From Bdellovibrionota bacterium (lineage in GTDB: Bacteria > Bdellovibrionota_C > UBA2361 > JBGSMV01): DNA of 64,000 nucleotides. The position numbers and the translations under genes are program-made. The notes under the pieces are model-generated. The model searched no databases and had not been told where the DNA came from. It saw only the letters and a list, made by a program, of their open reading frames with translations. The stretch spans positions 192,001-256,000 of the forward strand of contig JBGSMV010000047.1 of assembly GCA_041739995.1 (NCBI GenBank), given 5' to 3'. Below, one piece after another: positions 15,737 to 27,874 of the stretch (the stretch's first letter is position 1; every line of letters begins with the position of its first letter).

Positions 15737-17392
15737 TCATGTATTCACAAAATCGATCAGTTGAATATCCGGGTTTCGTTCCAGCATGAAGTTCTTCTCC
15801 CACTCGCCTGTGAACAATATGACCACGCGCCCCTTGGCATCGAGAGCCATAAAGGAGCTTTGCGGGCGGCGTAGATCGCGAGGATTTCCCCCTACCAGAT
15901 ATGAGCTAAAGCGATAGGGGAGAAGGTCGAGCTGGGTTTTAACCCCGTACTCCTCCTCTAATCGAAACTTCAGTACATCGAACTGCAATTGGCCAACGGC
16001 AGCGACATAAGGCGTGCCCTCAGGTTGCTCGAACGAGCGCAGTATTTGGACGGCGCCTTCAAGGCTGAGCTGCTCCATGCCTTTGATGAATGATTTATGT
16101 CGAAGTGCATCCAGCGGCCGAATCTGGGCGATTACTTCCGGGGGAAAACTTGGCATTGGCTTAAAATTGAAACCGCCTTCGAGGGAAATAGTATCGCCTA
16201 TAGCAAACGCTCCTGGGTTGATGACTCCAACCACATCACCTGGATAAGCGATGTCAGTGGTGTTGCGGTCTTGAGCCACCAAGCTGTAGGCCCGAGAGAG
16301 GCGAACTTCCTTGCCGAGGCGATGATGCTTCACCGACATGTCGCGTTCAAAGCGTCCGCTGCATATGCGAATGAACGCCATGCTGTCGCGATGCTTAGAA
16401 TTCATGTTGGCTTGTATCTTAAATACAAATCCGCTGAAGGCGTGTGTCGCAGGGTCAATCACCACTTCAGGCTGATCAGTGGCAACTTCGCCCAAGCCCC
16501 TTCCGCGATTCTCTGGGGCAAGGTTTGCTACATAAGAGCGAGGGCTAGGAGCGAGCGCAGTAAAACTGTCAAAGAATGGCTCTACACCGAAGTTAGTGAG
16601 CGCTGATCCAAAGAAAACAGGAGTAAGTTTTCCCGCAAGGAACGCTTCGTTATCAAAGGTATTTCCCGCAGCTTCTTGAAGTTCAAGATCTTCTTTAGCT
16701 TTGGCGAGCACGTCCGAATCGATTCGTTCCACTTTAGCGAGCTGGTCGAGTGCTATCTGTTCAACGATTGCCTTTTGAGCACCACCTTGTTGAGAGCGAC
16801 TAAAGAGCTGAACAGTCTTTGTCGCGAGCTCTACGACACCGACGAATGAGCGTCCTGATCCGATTGGCCAGTTCATTGGAGTTGCTTGAATGCCAAGCGC
16901 TTCCTCGACCTCGGTCATGAGGTCCAGAGGATCTCGACCAGGCAAATCCATTTTGTTCACAAAGGTAAGAATTGGAATGCCACGCATGCGACACACGGCG
17001 AACAGTTTTCGCGTTTGGTTTTCGACACCCTTGGCAGCATCAATCACCATGATGGCGCTGTCTGCGGCGGTCAGAGTTCTGTAGGTGTCTTCACTGAAAT
17101 CTTGGTGACCAGGAGTGTCGAGTACATTAATGACATGGCCCTTGTACTGAAACTGCATTGCCGAGGCGGTGATGCTGATACCGCGCTCTTGCTCCATCGC
17201 CATCCAGTCCGAGCTGGCTGCCTTTCCGCCCTTGCGCGCTCTGACCATGCCTGCGGTGCGCAGCATGCCTGAGTAAAGCAGCAGCTTCTCTGTCAGAGTG
17301 GTTTTACCGGCGTCGGGGTGACTGATGATGGCGAACGTACGTCTTAGAGAAGCTTCTGACTGTACTTCAGCGGGAGAGGCGAATTCTTGCAT
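15737..17392 (-). CDS. prfC: Peptide chain release factor 3
   Basis: RRTFAIISHPDAGKTTLTEKLLL, SDWMAME, DTPGHQDFSEDTYR, FKIQANM. Confidence 0.97.
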   Translation of the reverse strand: MQEFASPAEVQSEASLRRTFAIISHPDAGKTTLTEKLLLYSGMLRTAGMVRARKGGKAASSDWMAMEQERGISITASAMQFQYKGHVINVLDTPGHQDFSEDTYRTLTAADSAIMVIDAAKGVENQTRKLFAVCRMRGIPILTFVNKMDLPGRDPLDLMTEVEEALGIQATPMNWPIGSGRSFVGVVELATKTVQLFSRSQQGGAQKAIVEQIALDQLAKVERIDSDVLAKAKEDLELQEAAGNTFDNEAFLAGKLTPVFFGSALTNFGVEPFFDSFTALAPSPRSYVANLAPENRGRGLGEVATDQPEVVIDPATHAFSGFVFKIQANMNSKHRDSMAFIRICSGRFERDMSVKHHRLGKEVRLSRAYSLVAQDRNTTDIAYPGDVVGVINPGAFAIGDTISLEGGFNFKPMPSFPPEVIAQIRPLDALRHKSFIKGMEQLSLEGAVQILRSFEQPEGTPYVAAVGQLQFDVLKFRLEEEYGVKTQLDLLPYRFSSYLVGGNPRDLRRPQSSFMALDAKGRVVILFTGEWEKNFMLERNPDIQLIDFVNT

Positions 17393-17706
17393 GGAACCAA
17401 AAATTTAGACCAAAAGTTTAAAATTCTACTGGAAAACACTGCCGAAAGCCCCGAAGGACTCTGTGCGGTCGATTGCCCCCTACGGAGACGCCTAAAACTA
17501 TCTGGATTGAGGGATATTTGCTATCGCCTGAGGGCGTTCTGGGCGGGTTCTAAGGCAATACCAAGGGTGGGCGGGGGAGAGGACAAAAACGGCAAACTGA
17601 GGAAGAAAAGCCAGCCTTTCGCGTTTTGAGCGCTTCGGCTTGGTTATCTCCTAGATTTTCTGGGCTATATCTTCGGCTAGGCGCCTAAGAGAGTTCATAG
17701 CTCATC

Positions 17707-18162
17707 ATGACATCACCTCCTGTTGGATCTACCGTAAAACTTCGACGTACTCGTACGACCGGTATTGTCGAGAAAGTGAGCGGAGATTGGGTCGAGCTGT
17801 TGGTGGGCTCGGTACGGATGCGTGCCAGAATGTCGGAGGTTGAACTTAGTGCGCCAACTTCAAAGAAGGAAGAGACCACCACGCGATCCAAGCCATACAC
17901 TCTAGTAGCCGATTCAAGACATACGCCAGAATCGATAGATCTCCACGGACTCCGTGTTCATGAAGCGCTCTTGAAGACTGAAGAAGCCATAGACCGAGCA
18001 CTGCTTGCGGGGCTTTCTAGACTCTCGATAATTCACGGCGTAGGAATGGGAAAGATAATGGATGCGCTAGACGGGCTTCTGCCTCAGCTACCTTCTGTGG
18101 CGCATTTTGCAAGAGACACCAAGAATCCAGGCGTTACGCATGTGTATTTCCATGCGGCGTGA
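17707..18162 (+). CDS. Stand-alone Smr protein with N-terminal MutS2-KOW-like domain
   Basis: VGSTVKL..TGIVEK..VELLVGSVRM; IDLHGLRVHEA, IIHGVGMG, GVTHVYF. Confidence 0.85.
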   Translation: MTSPPVGSTVKLRRTRTTGIVEKVSGDWVELLVGSVRMRARMSEVELSAPTSKKEETTTRSKPYTLVADSRHTPESIDLHGLRVHEALLKTEEAIDRALLAGLSRLSIIHGVGMGKIMDALDGLLPQLPSVAHFARDTKNPGVTHVYFHAA

Positions 18163-18197
18163 GCGATGTGTGATCACCCGGTAGAGTGGTCTTTACA

Positions 18198-19382
18198 TTA
18201 CTCTGGATTGGCGACTTCTTGGAAGTTTTCTGCGAGAACCTCTCCAGTCAACTTGGCCACTTCCGTGAGCTCCTCTGCGCTGATGGTAAGCGGCGGCAGG
18301 AAGCGAATCACGGTAGGTCCGGCCGGAATCGCAAGCACGCCTCGTTCCATAAGCTTTGCGATATAGGGGGTGCTCTTTTCCTTTAGTTGCAAGCCAATCA
18401 TCAGTCCTAGATTTCGAATCTCTCTCACCTTAGGAGAGCTCAAGGCACGTAGTTGCTCTACGAAGGCCTTTCCCTTCTTAGAGGCAGTAGCTGCAAGATC
18501 ATGCTTTTGCATATAGCGGATAGTGGCGAGAGCGGCGGCGCAGGCAAGCGGATTTCCTCCAAAGGTCGTGCCGTGCTGCCCAATGTCCAAACATACTTTT
18601 GAGTTAGAAAGCACCGCGCCCATTGGAACGCCACCTGCAATGGATTTTGCGAGGCACAGAATGTCAGGCTCTACCCCATACTGTTCAAAAGCAAACATAG
18701 AACCCGTGCGACAAAACCCAGTCTGAATCTCGTCTAGAATCAACAGAGCTCCCCGCTCAGAGCAAATTTTACGTACTTGCTGCAAGTACTCTTGGTCTGC
18801 GACATAAACCCCGCCTTCACCTTGAACCACCTCAAGAATAACACCTGCCACCTTGTCATCGCAGGCATTACTGAAAGCTTCTAAGTTGTTAAAGGGCACG
18901 TGCTTAAACCCAGGAACCAATGGCTCAAAGCCTTCGCGGTACTTTGGATTATGCGTGGCGCTTAGCGCGCCCATGCTGCGGCCATGAAAACCACGCACTG
19001 CGGCAATGAAATCTGTGCGCCGCGTACTTGCCCGCGCAAACTTAATAGCGGCCTCGATTGCTTCTGTCCCTGAGTTGCAGAGAAAAACGCGATTCAGTGA
19101 CTTAGGGCCGAGCGAGGCCAGCAGCTCAAACAGCTCGGAGCGTGCCTGGTGGTGGAATATCCCGGTGCAGCTCAGTAGTTGACGCGACTGTGCGCAAATA
19201 GCTTCCACTACCTCAGGATTGCAGTGCCCGACATTTATGGAGCCGGAACCGGAAGAGCAGTCAATGTATGAGCGACCCGCGCTATCCCACAGACGCGATC
19301 CTTCACCACGGACAAGCGTGATTCCACGCTTAGGGTAAATCGCAAGCTCATACTGATCGGAGAGTTCGGCAGCGTTAACCAT
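18198..19382 (-). CDS. lysJ: [LysW]-aminoadipate semialdehyde transaminase (class III PLP aminotransferase)
   Basis: [53 protein letters not shown]; position in lysW cluster. Confidence 0.88.
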
Positions 19383-19418
19383 GGGAGAGCCTGTTAAAGT
19401 TGAAAATCGTTGAAAATT

Positions 19419-19510
19419 TAAATCTTAGTGGTCTTGGTGGTGCAAACAGAGCCTAGAAATCGCCCTAAATTTGATTAAACCACGAAGCCCAATAAGCGCA
19501 CGAAGTTAGA
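19419..19510 (+). repeat. Repeat family 3, copy 1
   Basis: taaatcttagtggt...gtggtgcaaa...ctagaaat...cctaaatttgattaaaccacgaagc...gcacgaa aligns to the reverse complement of 21061-21138. Confidence 0.8.
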
Positions 19511-19576
19511 AACATTGGTTGTTCAGAAGCTCCATAGGTCTACTAAGTTCCTGCTCATCGCCCTTTGAATACCTAC

Positions 19577-20368
19577 CTATTGAATAACAGTGCCTTGGCC
19601 CTCAAGCGCGCGCTGAAGCGGATTTGTCACGCGACCATCCGCAATCACCACTTTAGACTCGGACGTAGTCAGCAGACGCGAAATTGCCATTAGCTTACGA
19701 CGAAAGCGACCCTGTGCGGTGCTTTCACGCGCAGCAAGTTCAGAGCGAGTGAGTTTTGCAATGACTGAACCAGAATCTTCTGCATTATTCAGAAAACCTG
19801 GAGCTTCAATAAACTGCACTACGGTATCCGCCTTGCACGCGACCTGAAGCAACGCGACGATGTCGTCATTTTCCGAATTAATAGCATAACCATCCGCATC
19901 GAGAATGGGAACGGTGATAACAGGCACGTACCCATTGTCTAAAAGCATTTGAAGCAGCTGTTGGTTGACTGATCGTGGTTTGCCCGAAAAATCTCGCACC
20001 ATAATGGTCTTGCCATTCTGCCGCACGCGTATTCCCGCATTTCGCTCGCCGCGAATAAGCTGGCCATCAATACCTGAGAGACCAATCGCATTTACCCCGT
20101 GACGCTGAAAGAGCTCCACTAAGCGCTTGTTGCGTAGCCCGGCGTATGACATGCACATCAAGTCGATTAGTTCTTCGTCACTTTGAACACTCGAAATTCC
20201 TGAGGCGGATTCGAGCGTGGTTATGGTGGTACAAAGCTTCTTGGCAAGGCTGTCCCTTAAGGCATTGGCGCCGTGCACTACCAAAAAAGGCTGTTTGTAT
20301 TGGGCGAGGTCTTTAACAATCTCTTCGAGGTTAATCGAGGCACCTCCGCCGATTTTCACAATCATCAT
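19577..20368 (-). CDS. lysZ: [LysW]-aminoadipate kinase
   Basis: MIVKIGGG, VVHGAN, GLSGIDG, INSEND, GRFRRKL; ATG at 20368 with GGAGG RBS overlaps upstream TGA (ATGA). Confidence 0.9.
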   Translation of the reverse strand: MMIVKIGGGASINLEEIVKDLAQYKQPFLVVHGANALRDSLAKKLCTTITTLESASGISSVQSDEELIDLMCMSYAGLRNKRLVELFQRHGVNAIGLSGIDGQLIRGERNAGIRVRQNGKTIMVRDFSGKPRSVNQQLLQMLLDNGYVPVITVPILDADGYAINSENDDIVALLQVACKADTVVQFIEAPGFLNNAEDSGSVIAKLTRSELAARESTAQGRFRRKLMAISRLLTTSESKVVIADGRVTNPLQRALEGQGTVIQ

Positions 20369-21003
20369 CGGGTAAATACCTCCACAGTCCTTCTTGGTAG
20401 CTGTTCCCATCCACTGAGCGAAGGCAAAACCTCAGAGCAGACGGCAAGCTCTCTACCTTTATGGACGTGCAAAGTGAAATATTCTGGAGCTTCAGAAAAG
20501 TCAGAGTACAGATAGGCGCGAGTCTCGTCGGCAAGCAGGACGTTCATGGCGCGCACATAACGTGTGCGACTGGTGATGAGCTTCATGGCGTCACGTAGTG
20601 CCGCCCCCCAATCGCCTTGGTAGCAGCTGCGAATCACATTAAAGATCTTCTCTGCGCCGATTCTGCCCTGTTCTCTTATCCTGACCCCTTGTAGCTCGCC
20701 GTTGAACGCAAAAGTAATGCCGTCTGCGAAAAAAGGCATATTGTTTTCAACCACAATACCTTCATCCCTAAAAGCGCTGCGAGCATGAGCGACTACTTGT
20801 TGCGCACCGACCAACGAAGGCAGAGAGTTCTCCCAGATGGGACAAATGCGGTGATGCGAGTGTGAATCTGCTTTAGTCTTCCACGATATGCCGTATCCGT
20901 GCCCCTGGAACTCTCGGCTATTCTTGCAGGCAGTCGCAAACTCGTTGAGCGTGCGAGCGCAATCCGGAAGAGAATCTCCTGCGAGATAAAGAAGTCGACA
21001 CAT
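20365..21003 (-). CDS. Class II glutamine amidotransferase / Ntn hydrolase (EgtC/YafJ/Dug3-like)
   Basis: N-terminal MCRL (Cys2 nucleophile), GHGYGISW, VAHARSA, NNMPF, FAFNGEL, AVCSE. Confidence 0.9.
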   Translation of the reverse strand: MCRLLYLAGDSLPDCARTLNEFATACKNSREFQGHGYGISWKTKADSHSHHRICPIWENSLPSLVGAQQVVAHARSAFRDEGIVVENNMPFFADGITFAFNGELQGVRIREQGRIGAEKIFNVIRSCYQGDWGAALRDAMKLITSRTRYVRAMNVLLADETRAYLYSDFSEAPEYFTLHVHKGRELAVCSEVLPSLSGWEQLPRRTVEVFTR

Positions 21004-21060
21004 TGCGTTAGTGGTCCTTCCTAAATAGTAACTGATAGAAGAAAAGCTAGGAAACCTCTG

Positions 21061-21138
21061 TATAATTCGTGCTTCTAGCTTCGTGGTTTAAGCAAATCTA
21101 GGCCCATTCCTAGAGTTTCTTTGCACCACTAAGATTTA
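21061..21138 (-). repeat. Repeat family 3, copy 2 (inverted relative to copy 1)
   Basis: Reverse complement taaatcttagtggtgcaaagaaactctaggaatgggcctagatttgcttaaaccacgaagctagaagcacgaa. Confidence 0.8.
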
Positions 21139-21155
21139 GTCTTTAAGAATCTTTC

Positions 21156-21296
21156 GAGTGTCCTGAGTTAAGAGTTCGATGAATAGCTCTGGCCGAGCTC
21201 GCTGCTCTCTTTGTGAATGTATTTATTGAATTACACAATGAGTTCAGCGAGAACAGCGAGAAAAATACTAAAATGAACTTCTGATTCAGCACACTA
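21156..21296 (-). repeat. Repeat family 1 (MITE/REPIN-like, ~140 bp), copy A
   Basis: Reverse complement matches 42564-42710 and 49651-49790; starts at lysY TAG stop; imperfect terminal inverted repeats. Confidence 0.88.
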
Positions 21297-22343
21297 AATT
21301 GGGTGTAATCCGCCGAACTCAAGCCCAAGAGTTTCTTCTAGGCCGTGCATAATGTTAAACGCTTGGAGTGCCTGTCCCGCAGCGCCCTTCATCAAGTTAT
21401 CCATTGCAGAGATTACGACCAGGCGATTTGAGAACGGGTCAATCTCAAACCCCACATCGCAATAGTTGGTACCCCACAGCAGTTTTGGATCGGGGTAGCG
21501 GTACAGGCCTTGAGATTCTTTGACGATTCTTACGAAAGGCTCGCTTTTATAAGCTTCGCGATAGATTTGCCAAATCGCTCGTTCATCGAGCGTTTGGTTT
21601 AAAAATACATGCGAGGTCGCCAGCACACCGCGCACCATATCAATGGCAGTGGCAGAAAAGTGTACTTTAAGGTCCTGCCCAAAGGATATTTCTTGCAGAA
21701 TCTCTGCCGTATGCCGGTGTCCAGTAGGCTGAAAGGAACGCAGAGAGTGAGAACGCACGGGATGATGCGATCCGTCGTTTGATTCTGCTCCGGCTTCGCT
21801 AGAGCCGACTTTGACTTCAACCACTACTGATTGAGGTTCTACGACTTGCTGCTTCAGCAATGGATAAAGCCCCAAAATGGTGGCGGTAGCGTTGCACCCA
21901 GCGCTAGAAATATAGTGAGCGCTACGCATCTCTTCGCGATGAAGCTCAGGAATTCCGTAGACAAATTTTGAGAGATACTGTGGTGCTTGATGCGGAGCAT
22001 GATACCAGCGGGCGTATGCTTCTGGATCTTTCAGCCTAAAATCAGCACTGAGATCGATAATTCGTGGTGCCTTTTCCATGAGCGAAGGCATGTGTTGCAT
22101 GCTCTGTGAATGCGGGAGGCAGGCGAATATCACGTCGCACTCTTGAAGCTCGGTCAGAGGCGAAAACTTGAGCTCGCTGCGTTTGCGAAGTGGTGGGTGA
22201 GTGCGGTGGGCGTATTTGCCACTCAGCCGCTCAGAGGTCACTTGGCGAATAGTGACGCTGGGGTGTGCGAGGAGAAGCCGCAGCAACTCGCCTCCCGTAT
22301 ACCCGGAACCTCCGACAATACTGACCGCAATCTTTTCAGACAT
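21294..22343 (-). CDS. lysY: [LysW]-aminoadipyl-phosphate reductase (ArgC family)
   Basis: [48 protein letters not shown] at 22343 overlaps lysX stop. Confidence 0.9.
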
Positions 22344-23190
22344 CGCGATGTTCCGCAGCTCGTAGCGTGTAATCAACGATGTGTTGAGGAATATTTACCC
22401 CAGTAGTCTGGATAGAGTTCTTATACTCCATGGTGTAGTTGACCTCGTTCGCGAGCAGCCCGTCTGGTGTTTCAAAGATATCGATCGCTACTATGCCACC
22501 TCCGACGGCCTTCGCTGCTTTAATAGAAAAGTCACGCAGTTCATTAGTCAGTGGACAATTGGAGGCAACTCCGCCTTGGGCGGTATTGGTTATCCAGTGA
22601 TCGGAAGTGCGGTATATTGCGGCGATACACTCATCCCCAACGACAAAGCTTCGAATGTCGCGACCACGCTTTTCTACATACTTCTGGATATAAAATATAG
22701 AGTGATGGTAGCTGCCCAGCACGGTCTTATGCTCAAGGATGGCTTCGGCTGCGTCTCGATCGTTCACCTTGGAAAGCAAGCGTCCCCAAGAACCTACTGC
22801 GGGTTTGAGCACGACCGGGTAACCCATCTCTTCGATGGCGCGTAGCGCTGACTGTTCAGTAAATGCAACGCGCAGCTCGGGCTGTGGCACACCGGCAACA
22901 CCAAGTGCGACGGAGGTAAGTAGTTTGTCTCCACACACCGTAGCAACTGCTTGGCTGTTGACGCAGCGCACTCCAGAAGCCTCGAACAGGGTCAGCGCAT
23001 GTAAGGCGCGTGAGTGATTGATGCAGCGCTCGACTACTACATCGACTCCGAAGCCGCGCGAACCTACCTTAAAAGAAATCTCTCTATCATCAATCATGAC
23101 GAGCTTCACGTCGGGACGAGATTGAAACTCATTAATGAGAAACTTCTCATCTGGCCGAATGAGGGAATGAAGGAACCCAACTCTCGTCAT
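22336..23190 (-). CDS. lysX: Alpha-aminoadipate-LysW ligase (RimK-type ATP-grasp)
   Basis: [39 protein letters not shown]; adjacent to lysW. Confidence 0.93.
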
Positions 23191-23192
23191 GG

Positions 23193-23357
23193 CTATTCCC
23201 CCCAGTCCTCTTCTTCCTTTGGAGCTTCGGCAAGCTTAAAGGGATTGATCGCGGTAACTTCAAGCTCAGCACCACACTCGCCGCATTCAAGCAGTTCGTT
23301 TTTTAGGGTGTCTGCGCCAAGCTGCACTTGGGCGCTACATAAAGGACATTCAGTCAT
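23193..23357 (-). CDS. lysW: Amino-group carrier protein LysW (54 aa, absent from ORF track)
   Basis: Manual translation [54 protein letters not shown]: two CxxC motifs, C-terminal EDWGE; GAGG RBS upstream. Confidence 0.97.
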
Positions 23358-23457
23358 ACTTTGCCTCAATGGATGGTGTATTGCGGACGCACTGTGGCAG
23401 GGGATGCGGTACTATTAAAGAGCCAAAGCGGAGAAAACTTTAAAACCCACTAATATT

Positions 23458-23471
23458 GTTACATTTGTAAC
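23458..23471. promoter_or_regulatory. Palindrome, candidate operator in lysW/flagellin divergent region
   Basis: GTTACA-TT-TGTAAC in AT-rich segment ~100 bp upstream of lysW. Confidence 0.35.
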
Positions 23472-23857
23472 GGGAGTCAGAAGTACCCGTCTCTTCACTA
23501 CAGATCTGCTTCGGTTCAAGCAATCGGGACCTTTCGGATCACCTGAACGGTGAACCAAGAAGGCGAGTCGCAGCTCCTTCGCTCGTATTGGTCGCACGGT
23601 TTCACCGTCAGTAACCACCGCTAAGAATTTTGCCTAGACGATCCCTCATAATGCTTGTGGGCATGTGAAGGACTGCAGTTTCGAGCAGTGGAATGTCAAT
23701 GCATTGGTCCGCTCAAACGACCTTAACAAGGCAATCTTTTGGACCCACTCACGGGTGACAAGGACGTACTCTGTGGCACCAATCAGTTTTAACAACGCTG
23801 CACAATTGTTGCCTTTACAGGGCAATCATTGGTCGAGTCACTGACCAAGTAGCGCGA

Positions 23858-25564
23858 GTGTACGAACGTCTTTCCAGTGGTCAACGTATCAACCGTGCTT
23901 CAGACGACTCCGCTGGACTATTGGTCAGCTTCGGGTTGCGCATAAAGAACGCGGTCTACCAGCAAGCGATAAGAAACGTAAACGACGTGACGAGCCTGCT
24001 TAACGTGGCCTCTGGAGCTACGGAACAGTTGTCGGGCCTACTTGAGCGAATGAACGAATTGGCTGAGCAGGCTGCTAACGGCACTTTCTCGATTGCCCAA
24101 AGGCATACGCTGAATGTTGAATCAAAGGCTTTGATTAACGAGTACAATCGGATCGTGGAATCCACCACATTTAATCGGCGCTCGGTTTTCAACGTAACGG
24201 GAGGAGGTGTATCCGCCCAGCTTGGATTCGGTTCAAACGTGCTTCACACCGAGGTGGGAAGTCAACTTGCTCGGTTGGTGGGTGACGGAACTTTTACTGA
24301 CTACGGGGCGTCCGGTGGGAGCCCCTCGGCGGTGGGTTATTTCAATAATGACGGATTTGATGACTTCGTCTCGGTGGGAAGCACTGTCGACGTGTATCTA
24401 TCGGACGGAGATGGGACCTTCTCGCAGGTTGCTGGGCCAGCAATTGACACTGGGATAGCCGTTACCGTTGGAGATTACAATGGGGACGGGGACCTAGACG
24501 CGGCGGTATACGATTCATTCCTCGGAACATTTTCATTCTACTTGGGTAACGGGACGGGGAGCCTTTCAGCTTCTAGCCAGATCGCCGCTGGATTCAGCAC
24601 AGGGGCACTATATTCAGGTGACTTTGACAACGATGGTGACGTCGATATTGCTACTCGAGTCGGTACGTCTGTCCGTATCGCGCAGAATGATGGAACCGGA
24701 TCCTTCACGCTTCTCGCTGCGATCTCTGGTGCCACGGATCTCACCGGTCTCGGAGACTTCAACGGGGATGGCAATATCGATATCGTTGGATCGGGACGAA
24801 TATTGTTGGGGAATGGCGACAACACCTTCACTGAAGCCGACGCGGTCGGCGGGGCCTATTCAGCAGGAGATTTGAACGGAGATGGCTATGACGACCTTGT
24901 AGGTGTTTCCGGTGGAAATCTGTTTGCCGCTTTATCTAATGGTGATGGAACGTTTTCTCAGCTCTCGCTCGGAACTATTGCGTCAAGCTCGAATGGAACC
25001 CGATTGCCGCTTATTGGAGATCTAAACGGGGATGGTTTGCTAGACATCTACCATGCAACGGGAGCGGCTAGTTTTCAGGTAGTACTACAAGACTCTAACG
25101 GCAACTTCAGCGCTCAGACCAGCGTCAGTCTCGCTTCGGGCACCGCCGTCACCCAATTTGGCGACTTTAATGGTGATGGGGTGGTTGATCTTCGAACATC
25201 CGCTCGAACTTTGCTCGGCGATACGGAGCAGTCGGCAGGGATCGCTCACTTCAGCATTTCAACGCAGGAGTATGCACAGGAGGCCCTTGATTTGATTGAG
25301 GCGCAGCGCGAGCTGGTTGGACGTGAACTCGGAGCTCAAGGGGCAAGCCTAAGTCGCCTGCAGAGCGCCGCTAGTGTGCTCATCAACATTACGTCGGAGT
25401 TTGCCGCGGCAGATTCCCGAATTCGAGATGTTGATGTCGCCCAGGAGACCGCTGAACTGGTGCGACTTCAAATATTGCAACAGGCGGGAGCGGCCGTACT
25501 TGGACAGGCGAACCTGTCCTTTCGGCTTGTCACAGAGCTGCTTGCTCCTCCTGCGACGAATTAG
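23858..25564 (+). CDS. Flagellin-family protein with seven FG-GAP/VCBS repeats in the variable region; 5' end possibly frameshifted
   Basis: ERLSSGQRINRASDDSAGL, RMNELAEQAANGT; C-terminal SRIRDVDVAQETAELVRLQILQQAGAAVLGQAN; seven GD(F/L/Y)NGDGxxD-type motifs. Confidence 0.9.
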   Translation: MYERLSSGQRINRASDDSAGLLVSFGLRIKNAVYQQAIRNVNDVTSLLNVASGATEQLSGLLERMNELAEQAANGTFSIAQRHTLNVESKALINEYNRIVESTTFNRRSVFNVTGGGVSAQLGFGSNVLHTEVGSQLARLVGDGTFTDYGASGGSPSAVGYFNNDGFDDFVSVGSTVDVYLSDGDGTFSQVAGPAIDTGIAVTVGDYNGDGDLDAAVYDSFLGTFSFYLGNGTGSLSASSQIAAGFSTGALYSGDFDNDGDVDIATRVGTSVRIAQNDGTGSFTLLAAISGATDLTGLGDFNGDGNIDIVGSGRILLGNGDNTFTEADAVGGAYSAGDLNGDGYDDLVGVSGGNLFAALSNGDGTFSQLSLGTIASSSNGTRLPLIGDLNGDGLLDIYHATGAASFQVVLQDSNGNFSAQTSVSLASGTAVTQFGDFNGDGVVDLRTSARTLLGDTEQSAGIAHFSISTQEYAQEALDLIEAQRELVGRELGAQGASLSRLQSAASVLINITSEFAAADSRIRDVDVAQETAELVRLQILQQAGAAVLGQANLSFRLVTELLAPPATN

Positions 25565-27310: not shown

Positions 27311-27874
27311 TTAGTCTGGGTTGGAGTTCTTGTTATGGTTAGTGGCGCGTCGAAACGAGCGCCAGCGCGCTCTTCGACGCTGCAAATCTGCAGAAACTTC
27401 CTGTACTGCCAGCGGGATGTCCATCGAAGGTAGAGTAATAATCCGGGGGGCGTCAGAAACCTTCCAATCATCAAGTCCAAGCCGCGAGAGAACCGTGTTC
27501 ATGACTTCTCGGTCATCTGCCAGGCCGCGGCTGCCATTTCTGTCTGGTACCGCATCGACTCGAAATGTCAGGTACCTGACTGCTCCTACGGCTAACGCTT
27601 TTTGTTCGGCGCTAAATTGAGAATAACGCTCTAAGAGCATTACGGCGCGAGCACACAGGTCGCTTGCTAAGTCCAAATCGGGGCCAGCTTTCTCTGCTTT
27701 AAATCCACAGAACCACTCAGCGGCATCCACGATCTTTTCTTTCAGTCGGGAAACGTCGTCGGCACTGTAGTGAACACAAAAGCCTCTAAAGACAACCTGT
27801 GCGCCAGGCATGTGTGCGAGTTCGGCGCACGCAAGCTCTAAGAGAGAGCCAGAGACTTTAGTGTCGGAATCCAT
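27311..27874 (-). CDS. Hypothetical protein, DUF1232/YkvA-like motif
   Basis: GAVRYLTFRVDAVPD...GLADDREV resembles the YkvA Y..D.IPD..G..DD pattern. Confidence 0.65.
   Translation of the reverse strand: MDSDTKVSGSLLELACAELAHMPGAQVVFRGFCVHYSADDVSRLKEKIVDAAEWFCGFKAEKAGPDLDLASDLCARAVMLLERYSQFSAEQKALAVGAVRYLTFRVDAVPDRNGSRGLADDREVMNTVLSRLGLDDWKVSDAPRIITLPSMDIPLAVQEVSADLQRRRARWRSFRRATNHNKNSNPD

Follow-up and report, generated by a model that had tools for sequence, protein, structure and literature searches.

A putative Ntn hydrolase as a probable replacement of LysK in LysW-dependent lysine clusters of bacteria and archaea

LysK, a peptidase of the M20 family, frees lysine or ornithine from the amino-group carrier LysW by hydrolysing the gamma-glutamyl amide that joins the alpha-amino group of the amino acid to the C-terminal Glu of the carrier; to our knowledge, no other enzyme is known to carry out this last step of the LysW pathway. 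How, then, is the finished amino acid released where a LysW cluster has no lysK? This question is raised by a stretch of 64,000 nucleotides (the window, throughout) from a Bdellovibrionota bacterium (UBA2361; JBGSMV01), assembly GCA_041739995.1, contig JBGSMV010000047.1, positions 192,001-256,000 of the forward strand; the source genome comprises 3.8 Mb in 81 contigs and is 91% complete. The window contains an operon, all on the minus strand, with the order lysW-lysX-lysY-X-lysZ-lysJ, where X is our shorthand for the gene, and the protein, of a hydrolase of 212 amino acids (aa) at window positions 20365..21003 (-). It should be noted that a preliminary description of this DNA had claimed that every LysW-dependent step except lysK is encoded here, that the window has no M20 peptidase and that a convergent smr gene follows lysJ, and family models confirm this gene content. 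We consider it likely, on sequence and comparative grounds, that X replaces LysK as a [LysW]-lysine (or ornithine) hydrolase, non-homologous to it and independent of metal, and that X also deamidates LysW carriers ending in Gln. We infer the substrate and the reaction from the fold, the conserved residues, operon membership, the absence of LysK, Gln-ended carriers and a natural fusion to LysZ.

The X protein begins with MCRLLYLAGD and contains AHARSAF (residues 71-77), ENNMPFF (86-92) and FNGEL (100-104), which confirms the open reading frame (ORF) and the Cys2 N-terminal nucleophile (Ntn) motifs MCRL, HARSA, NNMPF and FNGEL as originally described. Its scores on sequence models are low: 15.5 bits (E 0.008) on Pfam GATase_4 (PF13230), under the gathering cut-off of 23, and 30.3 bits on the EgtC equivalog TIGR03442, against a cut-off of 218.65, a score that rules out X as a member of the EgtC family. 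There is no M20 match in Pfam or NCBIfam, and X is not a LysK family member by sequence. An AlphaFold model, built with 24 homologues, has a mean predicted local distance difference test score (pLDDT) of 89.1 and a predicted template modelling (TM) score of 0.88, and it conforms to the four-layer alpha-beta-beta-alpha fold of PurF, GlmS and EgtC. When this model was submitted to Foldseek, EgtC came out on top (4zfj/4zfl, TM 0.76-0.77, E ~2e-9), followed by PurF and the glutaminase domain of GlmS (TM 0.62-0.73, probability 1.00); the label "Ntn hydrolase" is therefore upheld by the fold model, although the sequence scores are weak. A profile search of PDB sequences with X returned 3mdn and EgtC, and a single-sequence phmmer search of X against the same sequences returned nothing relevant. 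Residues M1, C2, R3, H73, R75, S76, N87, N88, N101 and G102 are invariant in 24/24 homologues, and so are G113, R114, G116, A117, E118 and K119, which lie in a conserved basic loop, GV(R/K)I(R/K)..GRIGAEK, the sole low-confidence segment of the model (residues 110-114). With hhalign, AHARSAF and FNGEL fall on HTRWAT and HNGIVE of the GlmS of the same genome, which sets R75 and N101-G102 against the Arg and Asn-Gly motifs of GlmS in a weak alignment (probability 0.28). In the protein database, 2830 of 2937 candidates are relatives of X at E <= 0.001, the best 120 listed being 201-235 aa long and 45-52% identical. As judged from the modelled fold, X is a stand-alone class II amidotransferase-fold Ntn hydrolase, nearest to EgtC and outside the EgtC family.

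Two models of LysK were used, TIGR01902 (cut-off 163 bits; passed by the controls from Thermus, Deinococcus, Haloferax and Sulfolobus) and NF003367 (cut-off 363 bits). No M20 peptidase gene was found within the 64-kb window, and no LysK in the source genome at its 91% completeness, where the best TIGR01902 score is 23 bits. All four M20/M42 matches of this genome lie outside the window (C23, C27, C61 and C64:290687-291184); two are dipeptidase-like, one, on C27, is an unassigned 443-aa ArgE/DapE-like protein and one is M42 aminopeptidase-like, and thus the search of the rest of the genome gave no lysK and no clear stand-in of the argE type. Relatives of X occur in at least 570 stretches of a collection with one genome per species; the counts of related loci given here refer to the best 80 of these, with genes called by tblastn with the window proteins. 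None of the 80 X genomes has a LysK over the TIGR01902 cut-off (0/50, top score 106 bits, and 0/30, top score 116 bits), no LysK-like gene lies within 8 kb of X in any of the 80 loci, and, conversely, X is found in 0/80 LysK-centred metagenome loci collected with a LysK alignment. The top M20 matches under the cut-off, three of many, were examined as possible hidden LysK proteins and were rejected: they adjoin argB/argH (L087, L088) or are YgeY (L090).

The phylum of the window repeats this pattern. Among its 124 genomes, X is present in three (the source genome, G117 and G163) and LysW is over the cut-off in nine. Five LysW clusters of this phylum are free of X (L102-L106), and in all of them LysK directly follows lysJ or lysZ; these LysK proteins score 272-313 bits on TIGR01902 and 355-382 bits on NF003367, where four of the five reach the cut-off (L105 has 355). 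In the ninth genome with LysW (L101) the contig stops directly after lysW. X and LysK are mutually exclusive in the clusters and genomes examined, and the anti-correlation with lysK that the preliminary description suggested looking for is thus observed, in the X genomes, in the X loci, in the LysK loci and in the five clusters of the phylum with LysK.

The association of X with the LysW pathway starts from the operon itself, the genes of which are as follows:
23193..23357, minus strand: lysW, amino-group carrier of 54 aa, a zinc ribbon with C-terminal EEDWGE (PF21344, E 6.7e-18; TIGR01206, 63.1 bits, cut-off 53.2)
22336..23190, minus strand: lysX, ATP-grasp ligase loading the amino acid onto the C-terminal Glu of LysW (TIGR02144, 345.6 bits, cut-off 275.6; PF22626, PF08443)
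21294..22376, minus strand: lysY, argC-type semialdehyde dehydrogenase (TIGR01850, 400 bits; PF01118, PF22698)
20365..21003, minus strand: X, class II amidotransferase-fold (Ntn) hydrolase with Cys2, candidate [LysW]-lysine hydrolase and LysW-Gln deamidase (ORF, motifs, fold model and lysY-X-lysZ position)
19577..20368, minus strand: lysZ, [LysW]-aminoadipate kinase (NF010659, 239 bits, cut-off 223; PF00696)
18198..19382, minus strand: lysJ, class III aminotransferase, the last gene of the operon (PF00202, E 1.3e-114; LysJ_Th_th, TIGR00707)
17707-18162, plus strand: smr (Smr-domain gene), convergent and downstream of lysJ (window annotation)

The stop codon TGA of X (20367-20365) overlaps the ATG of lysZ (20368-20366), giving the ATGA at 20365-20368 that had been reported. 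X itself has an ATG start, with a Shine-Dalgarno-like GGAAGG ~13 nt upstream. The gap between lysY and X is 290 bp here (21004-21293) and a few bases in most related loci; a perfect palindrome with a 6-bp stem lies inside it (21097-21114).

The order lysY-X-lysZ is found in 66/80 loci and at least one lys gene lies beside X in 78/80, the incomplete cases being mostly short contigs, so that this placement is far beyond chance. At least 13 phyla, of bacteria as well as archaea, are represented among the best 80 loci (Ignavibacteriota, 26; Bacteroidota, 8; Pseudomonadota, 7; Calditrichota, 6; Acidobacteriota, 5; Thermodesulfobacteriota, 5; Binatota, 4; two metagenome-assembled genomes (MAGs) of Methanosarcinales; and others), and X also belongs to the LysW gene set of L107, a locus of the phylum of the window; the linkage to lysW clusters is thus recurrent. 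Homocitrate synthase is present in 37/80 X loci, usually between lysW and lysX, and in L014, L023 and L059 it has the Pfam domains HMGL-like and HCS_D2. In L059 the order is homocitrate synthase, the large and small subunits of homoaconitase, homoisocitrate dehydrogenase, lysX, lysY, X, lysZ and lysJ. The frequency of homocitrate synthase and this gene set indicate that X clusters are clusters of the aminoadipate pathway of lysine biosynthesis.

A natural in-frame fusion of X and LysZ was found in P0121, a protein of 481 aa from a 3.2-Mb contig; its X domain is N-terminal, as an Ntn enzyme requires, and its AA_kinase domain spans residues 216-454. Two other long matches were rejected as fusions, since P0122 looks frameshifted and P0123 chimeric; P0121 is the clean one of the three.

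The carrier provides a further observation. LysW ends in EDWGQ in 13/60 readable X-type clusters versus 0/26 LysK-type clusters (25 with LysK in the locus and one in which the contig ends first), a contrast with Fisher p = 0.008 when relatedness is ignored. On the LysZ tree, with 57 X-type rows, the Glu/Gln state of LysW changed at least 11 times. The bond between LysW and its cargo runs through the gamma-carboxyl of the last residue, Glu; a Gln-ended LysW is not activatable by the ATP-grasp ligase LysX, and an end of this kind is just what a class II glutaminase acts on. If gamma-glutamyl amides at the end of LysW are cleaved enzymatically, a change from Glu to Gln would be harmless, and deamidation by X would explain why Gln ends are tolerated solely in X-type clusters.

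We also modelled residues 2-212 of X in a complex with LysW. The interaction prediction score from aligned errors (ipSAE) was 0.46 in all three runs, compared to 0.00 for the best of three controls, with a contact agreement of at least 83% between runs and a partner pLDDT of at least 77. The pass mark for this score was reached by 116/157 solved complexes and 2/215 mismatched pairs, and the passes at 0.60 or lower comprise 18 of the 157 solved complexes plus both mismatches that passed. The predicted complex is separated from its controls; at this score, the prediction gives weak support to binding.

A LysZ tree was built from 111 rows (73 X-type, 35 LysK-type and 3 ArgB outgroups; tblastn matches covering at least 85% of the query, without a stop; quick IQ-TREE run, LG+G4). 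All 73 X-type LysZ sequences fall in one clade (Shimodaira-Hasegawa-like approximate likelihood ratio test (SH-aLRT), 100). The LysZ of the window is nearest to those of L007, from a Bdellovibrionota MAG, and L107, and, within its phylum, is far from those of LysK-type clusters (~30-35% identity). A single X-type clade suggests that the exchange happened once and was followed by wide spread of the X cluster, probably due in part to transfer, and it shows that X was kept in place across very deep divergence. The X-type variant crosses the boundary between bacteria and archaea, since X-type clusters are found on contigs of Methanosarcinales MAGs (L040 and L059), with an archaeal NAC-domain gene near the L059 cluster.

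In the proposed mechanism, methionine aminopeptidase would remove Met1, making Cys residue 1, as is the rule for this fold, and the Cys thiol would attack the gamma-amide between the C-terminal Glu of LysW and the alpha-amine of the completed lysine. The free amino acid would depart, leaving a LysW-gamma-glutamyl thioester on the enzyme, and hydrolysis of the thioester by water would regenerate LysW-Glu for the next round. Such chemistry would be in line with how class II amidotransferases hydrolyse glutamine and how EgtC cleaves its gamma-glutamyl substrate. From their motif positions, the oxyanion hole would be made up of Asn101-Gly102, and Arg75 would bind the last Glu of LysW by its free alpha-carboxylate. 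The same reaction on a Gln-ended LysW, with a gamma-amide and NH3 as the leaving group, would yield the active Glu form. In clusters with a second LysX, the leaving group might also be ornithine. Two adjacent LysX paralogues occur in some X clusters (L107:8775-10486, L032, L040 and L052); this arrangement resembles the LysX/ArgX pair of Sulfolobus and hints, by analogy, at combined lysine and ornithine synthesis. A variant of the mechanism, which we consider very unlikely, is that X acts as a transamidase: as lysine leaves, the carrier would pass through the thioester straight to the alpha-amine of a new aminoadipate. Once LysX had primed the carrier with ATP, or a Gln precursor had been deamidated, loading would proceed without ATP; a metal hydrolase such as LysK would be incapable of such a transfer.

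Several points weigh against the replacement of LysK by X. The X and LysK locus sets were each picked by the gene in question, and a single ancestral exchange makes the complementarity weaker as statistics, for it does not represent many independent events. X lies away from any lys gene in two of the 80 loci (L008 and L011), both genomes having LysW elsewhere. The sequence scores on the EgtC and GATase models are far under the cut-offs, the segment with the alpha-amino-binding Asp of GlmS/PurF is aligned unreliably to X by hhalign and MAFFT against the GlmS of the same genome, and the support from the predicted complex is weak. Other M20 proteins of the ArgE/DapE type are present in all 80 X genomes, with partial or full-length matches to the LysK model that reach 116 bits at most, and release of lysine in trans by such proteins is possible, as it is by the 443-aa protein of the source genome. 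If so, X could just mature or edit the carrier, deamidating Gln-ended LysW, which exists and needs deamidation, or removing a wrong amino acid, and an M20 protein encoded elsewhere would free the lysine. We regard this as improbable: Gln ends occur in just 13 of the 60 clusters and X is kept in all, including the window, the LysW of which ends in Glu; those of the top M20 candidates that were examined are part of a distinct arginine operon or are YgeY; and no M20 gene lies within 8 kb in the 80 X loci, whereas LysK-type clusters keep LysK adjacent. That X is an ordinary small-molecule gamma-glutamyl amidase or glutaminase of the EgtC or YafJ kind, riding along with the operon and not acting on LysW, would fit the two loci without lys neighbours and its nearest structures, namely EgtC, whose substrate is a small molecule, and uncharacterised single-domain class II proteins such as 3mdn and 1te5. 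It is hard to reconcile, however, with the order lysY-X-lysZ across phyla and domains of life, with translational coupling and natural fusion to lysZ, and with the distance from the EgtC model; moreover, a glutaminase is needed at no other step of the pathway, and the release step would be left unexplained. We give this explanation very little credence.

The amino acid that feeds the pathway raises a separate difficulty. The source genome (91% complete) yielded no homocitrate synthase, homoaconitase or homoisocitrate dehydrogenase; it has just an HMG-CoA lyase (the sole HMGL-like protein), AcnA and an NADP isocitrate dehydrogenase, the regions concerned being C27:56912-59629, C47:11073-11876 and C81:4054-5088. 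A search with a protein query found no homocitrate synthase in G117, of the same genus, or in G163, and three closed genomes with compact clusters have just LeuA-like proteins of ~30% identity. These absences, too, count against release of lysine by X, and they make it conceivable that X acts as proposed in a carrier pathway that here produces ornithine or another diamino acid from glutamate, a version compatible with our main claim. A separate arginine operon of the source genome (L100, G000:C22:52000-68000) consists of argG, two ORFs, argC, the gene of an N-acetylornithine carbamoyltransferase and argB; no argJ, argA, argD or argE was seen within it. The route through N-acetylornithine carbamoyltransferase yields no free ornithine, which speaks for synthesis of ornithine on LysW. 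Conversely, the LysX of the window is 69-79% (median 75%) identical to the LysX of homocitrate-synthase clusters and LysZ passes the equivalog cut-off for [LysW]-aminoadipate kinase; the genome has its own argB and argC, and no lysA is over the cut-off in it, so that the organism needs a lysine source; finally, the incompleteness of the assembly bears on the missing enzymes. An ornithine pathway is, in our estimate, rather unlikely. As the aminoadipate enzymes were not found, the amino acid released here would be lysine or ornithine, as the preliminary description allowed, and the puzzle of the aminoadipate source does not change the role proposed for X. Of the two further ORFs of the arginine operon, the one of 239 aa has a weak DUF7523 match and the one of 354 aa has no family.

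Overall, displacement of LysK by the non-homologous X, as first put forward in the preliminary description, is supported computationally by complementarity, linkage, Gln-ended LysW and the LysZ fusion. All of the computational tests suggested there favoured it.

Several details of the window complete the picture. The listed ORF of lysW begins at TTG 23369 and the conserved start is ATG 23357. The true start of lysY is likely ATG 22343, to judge from the family matches, which begin at residue 17. For lysZ, the NCBIfam matches begin at residue 15-16 of a longer, 277-aa ORF, fitting ATG 20368-20366 and the start MMIVKIGGG. The best NCBIfam model for lysJ is LysJ_Th_th (465 bits, below the equivalog cut-off of 700), and the argD subfamily TIGR00707 gives 440 bits (cut-off 410). 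An Rfam scan of window positions 17000-24500 found nothing credible (two matches, E 0.29 and 0.59) and no lysine riboswitch, and a promoter and terminator scan found sites not in excess of shuffled sequence, including in the lysY-X gap. The sequencing runs listed comprise four with DNA, all from one study, and none with RNA. A flagellin gene of 568 aa (23858-25564, +) is divergent from lysW; it encodes helical N- and C-terminal domains around five FG-GAP-like repeats, an unusual surface-exposed insert. Neither Pfam nor NCBIfam has a match for a 187-aa ORF (27311-27874, -) that lies between cinA and rlmD.

Compared to known systems, X would share with LysK both the reaction and the place in the pathway. 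However, LysK is a metal-dependent M20 enzyme of ~360 aa and X has a metal-independent Cys-Ntn fold without homology to it; the X gene lies between lysY and lysZ and lysK after lysJ; and Gln-ended LysW is seen just with X. Both EgtC, of ergothioneine biosynthesis, and Dug3, of glutathione degradation, are class II amidotransferase-fold proteins involved in cleavage of gamma-glutamyl amides. Among solved structures, EgtC (PDB 4zfj, 4zfk, 4zfl) is the one nearest to X, its sequence model is also the best match, and both it and X are stand-alone class II proteins with Cys2. It cleaves the gamma-glutamyl amide of gamma-glutamyl-hercynylcysteine sulfoxide, where the leaving group is the alpha-amine of an amino acid. 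X differs in its sequence (17-19% identity; 30 bits versus the cut-off of 219), in its context of lys genes and not of ergothioneine genes (no search was aimed at egt genes), and in its proposed acyl donor, the C-terminal residue of a protein, the alpha-amino group of which is in a peptide bond. The glutaminase domains of GlmS and PurF and the YafJ-like proteins (PF13230) are similar to X in the fold, the N-terminal Cys and, as far as the weak alignment shows, the R-x-x and N-G motifs, and some X homologues carry a precomputed PF13230 match; unlike GlmS and PurF, X has no synthase domain, and its segment after N-G is shorter and is the conserved basic loop. In actinobacteria, Dop removes Pup, which is linked via a C-terminal gamma-glutamyl amide, and also deamidates the encoded Gln of Pup to Glu. 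By analogy, one enzyme may do both jobs in the LysW system, too, and both tags vary between Gln and Glu among species; Dop, however, has an unrelated, glutamine-synthetase-like fold, and Pup marks proteins for degradation.

We found no description of the X enzyme in open-access full texts, a search outside of which subscription journals and supplements lie, and no text there contains both "LysW" and "glutamine amidotransferase". In the accessible portion of the Caldithrix abyssi genome paper, LysWXZYJ and Hcs are placed in one locus and the lysine pathway is said to possibly involve non-orthologous displacements. The portions available of the GapMind 2026 preprint, which mention LysW just for the LysZ of Thermococcus, and of Galperin and Koonin 2012 do not describe the X enzyme.

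The proposed hydrolase activity is directly testable with existing Thermus reagents. Automatic annotation now reads genomes with X as incomplete, and the lysine pathway of C. abyssi appears, from the accessible part of its genome paper, to have been left open for the same reason. If the proposal is true, it would represent a clean case of non-homologous enzyme displacement, would give a concrete function to the many stand-alone proteins labelled "class II glutamine amidotransferase" and would explain how Gln can be encoded at the terminal Glu of LysW, a residue thought to be essential. For the carriers of X, which include Ignavibacteriota, Calditrichota, Bacteroidota, Acidobacteriota, Thermodesulfobacteriota, Binatota, Gemmatimonadota, some Pseudomonadota and some archaea, it would fill what looks like a gap in the lysine biosynthesis of hundreds of species.

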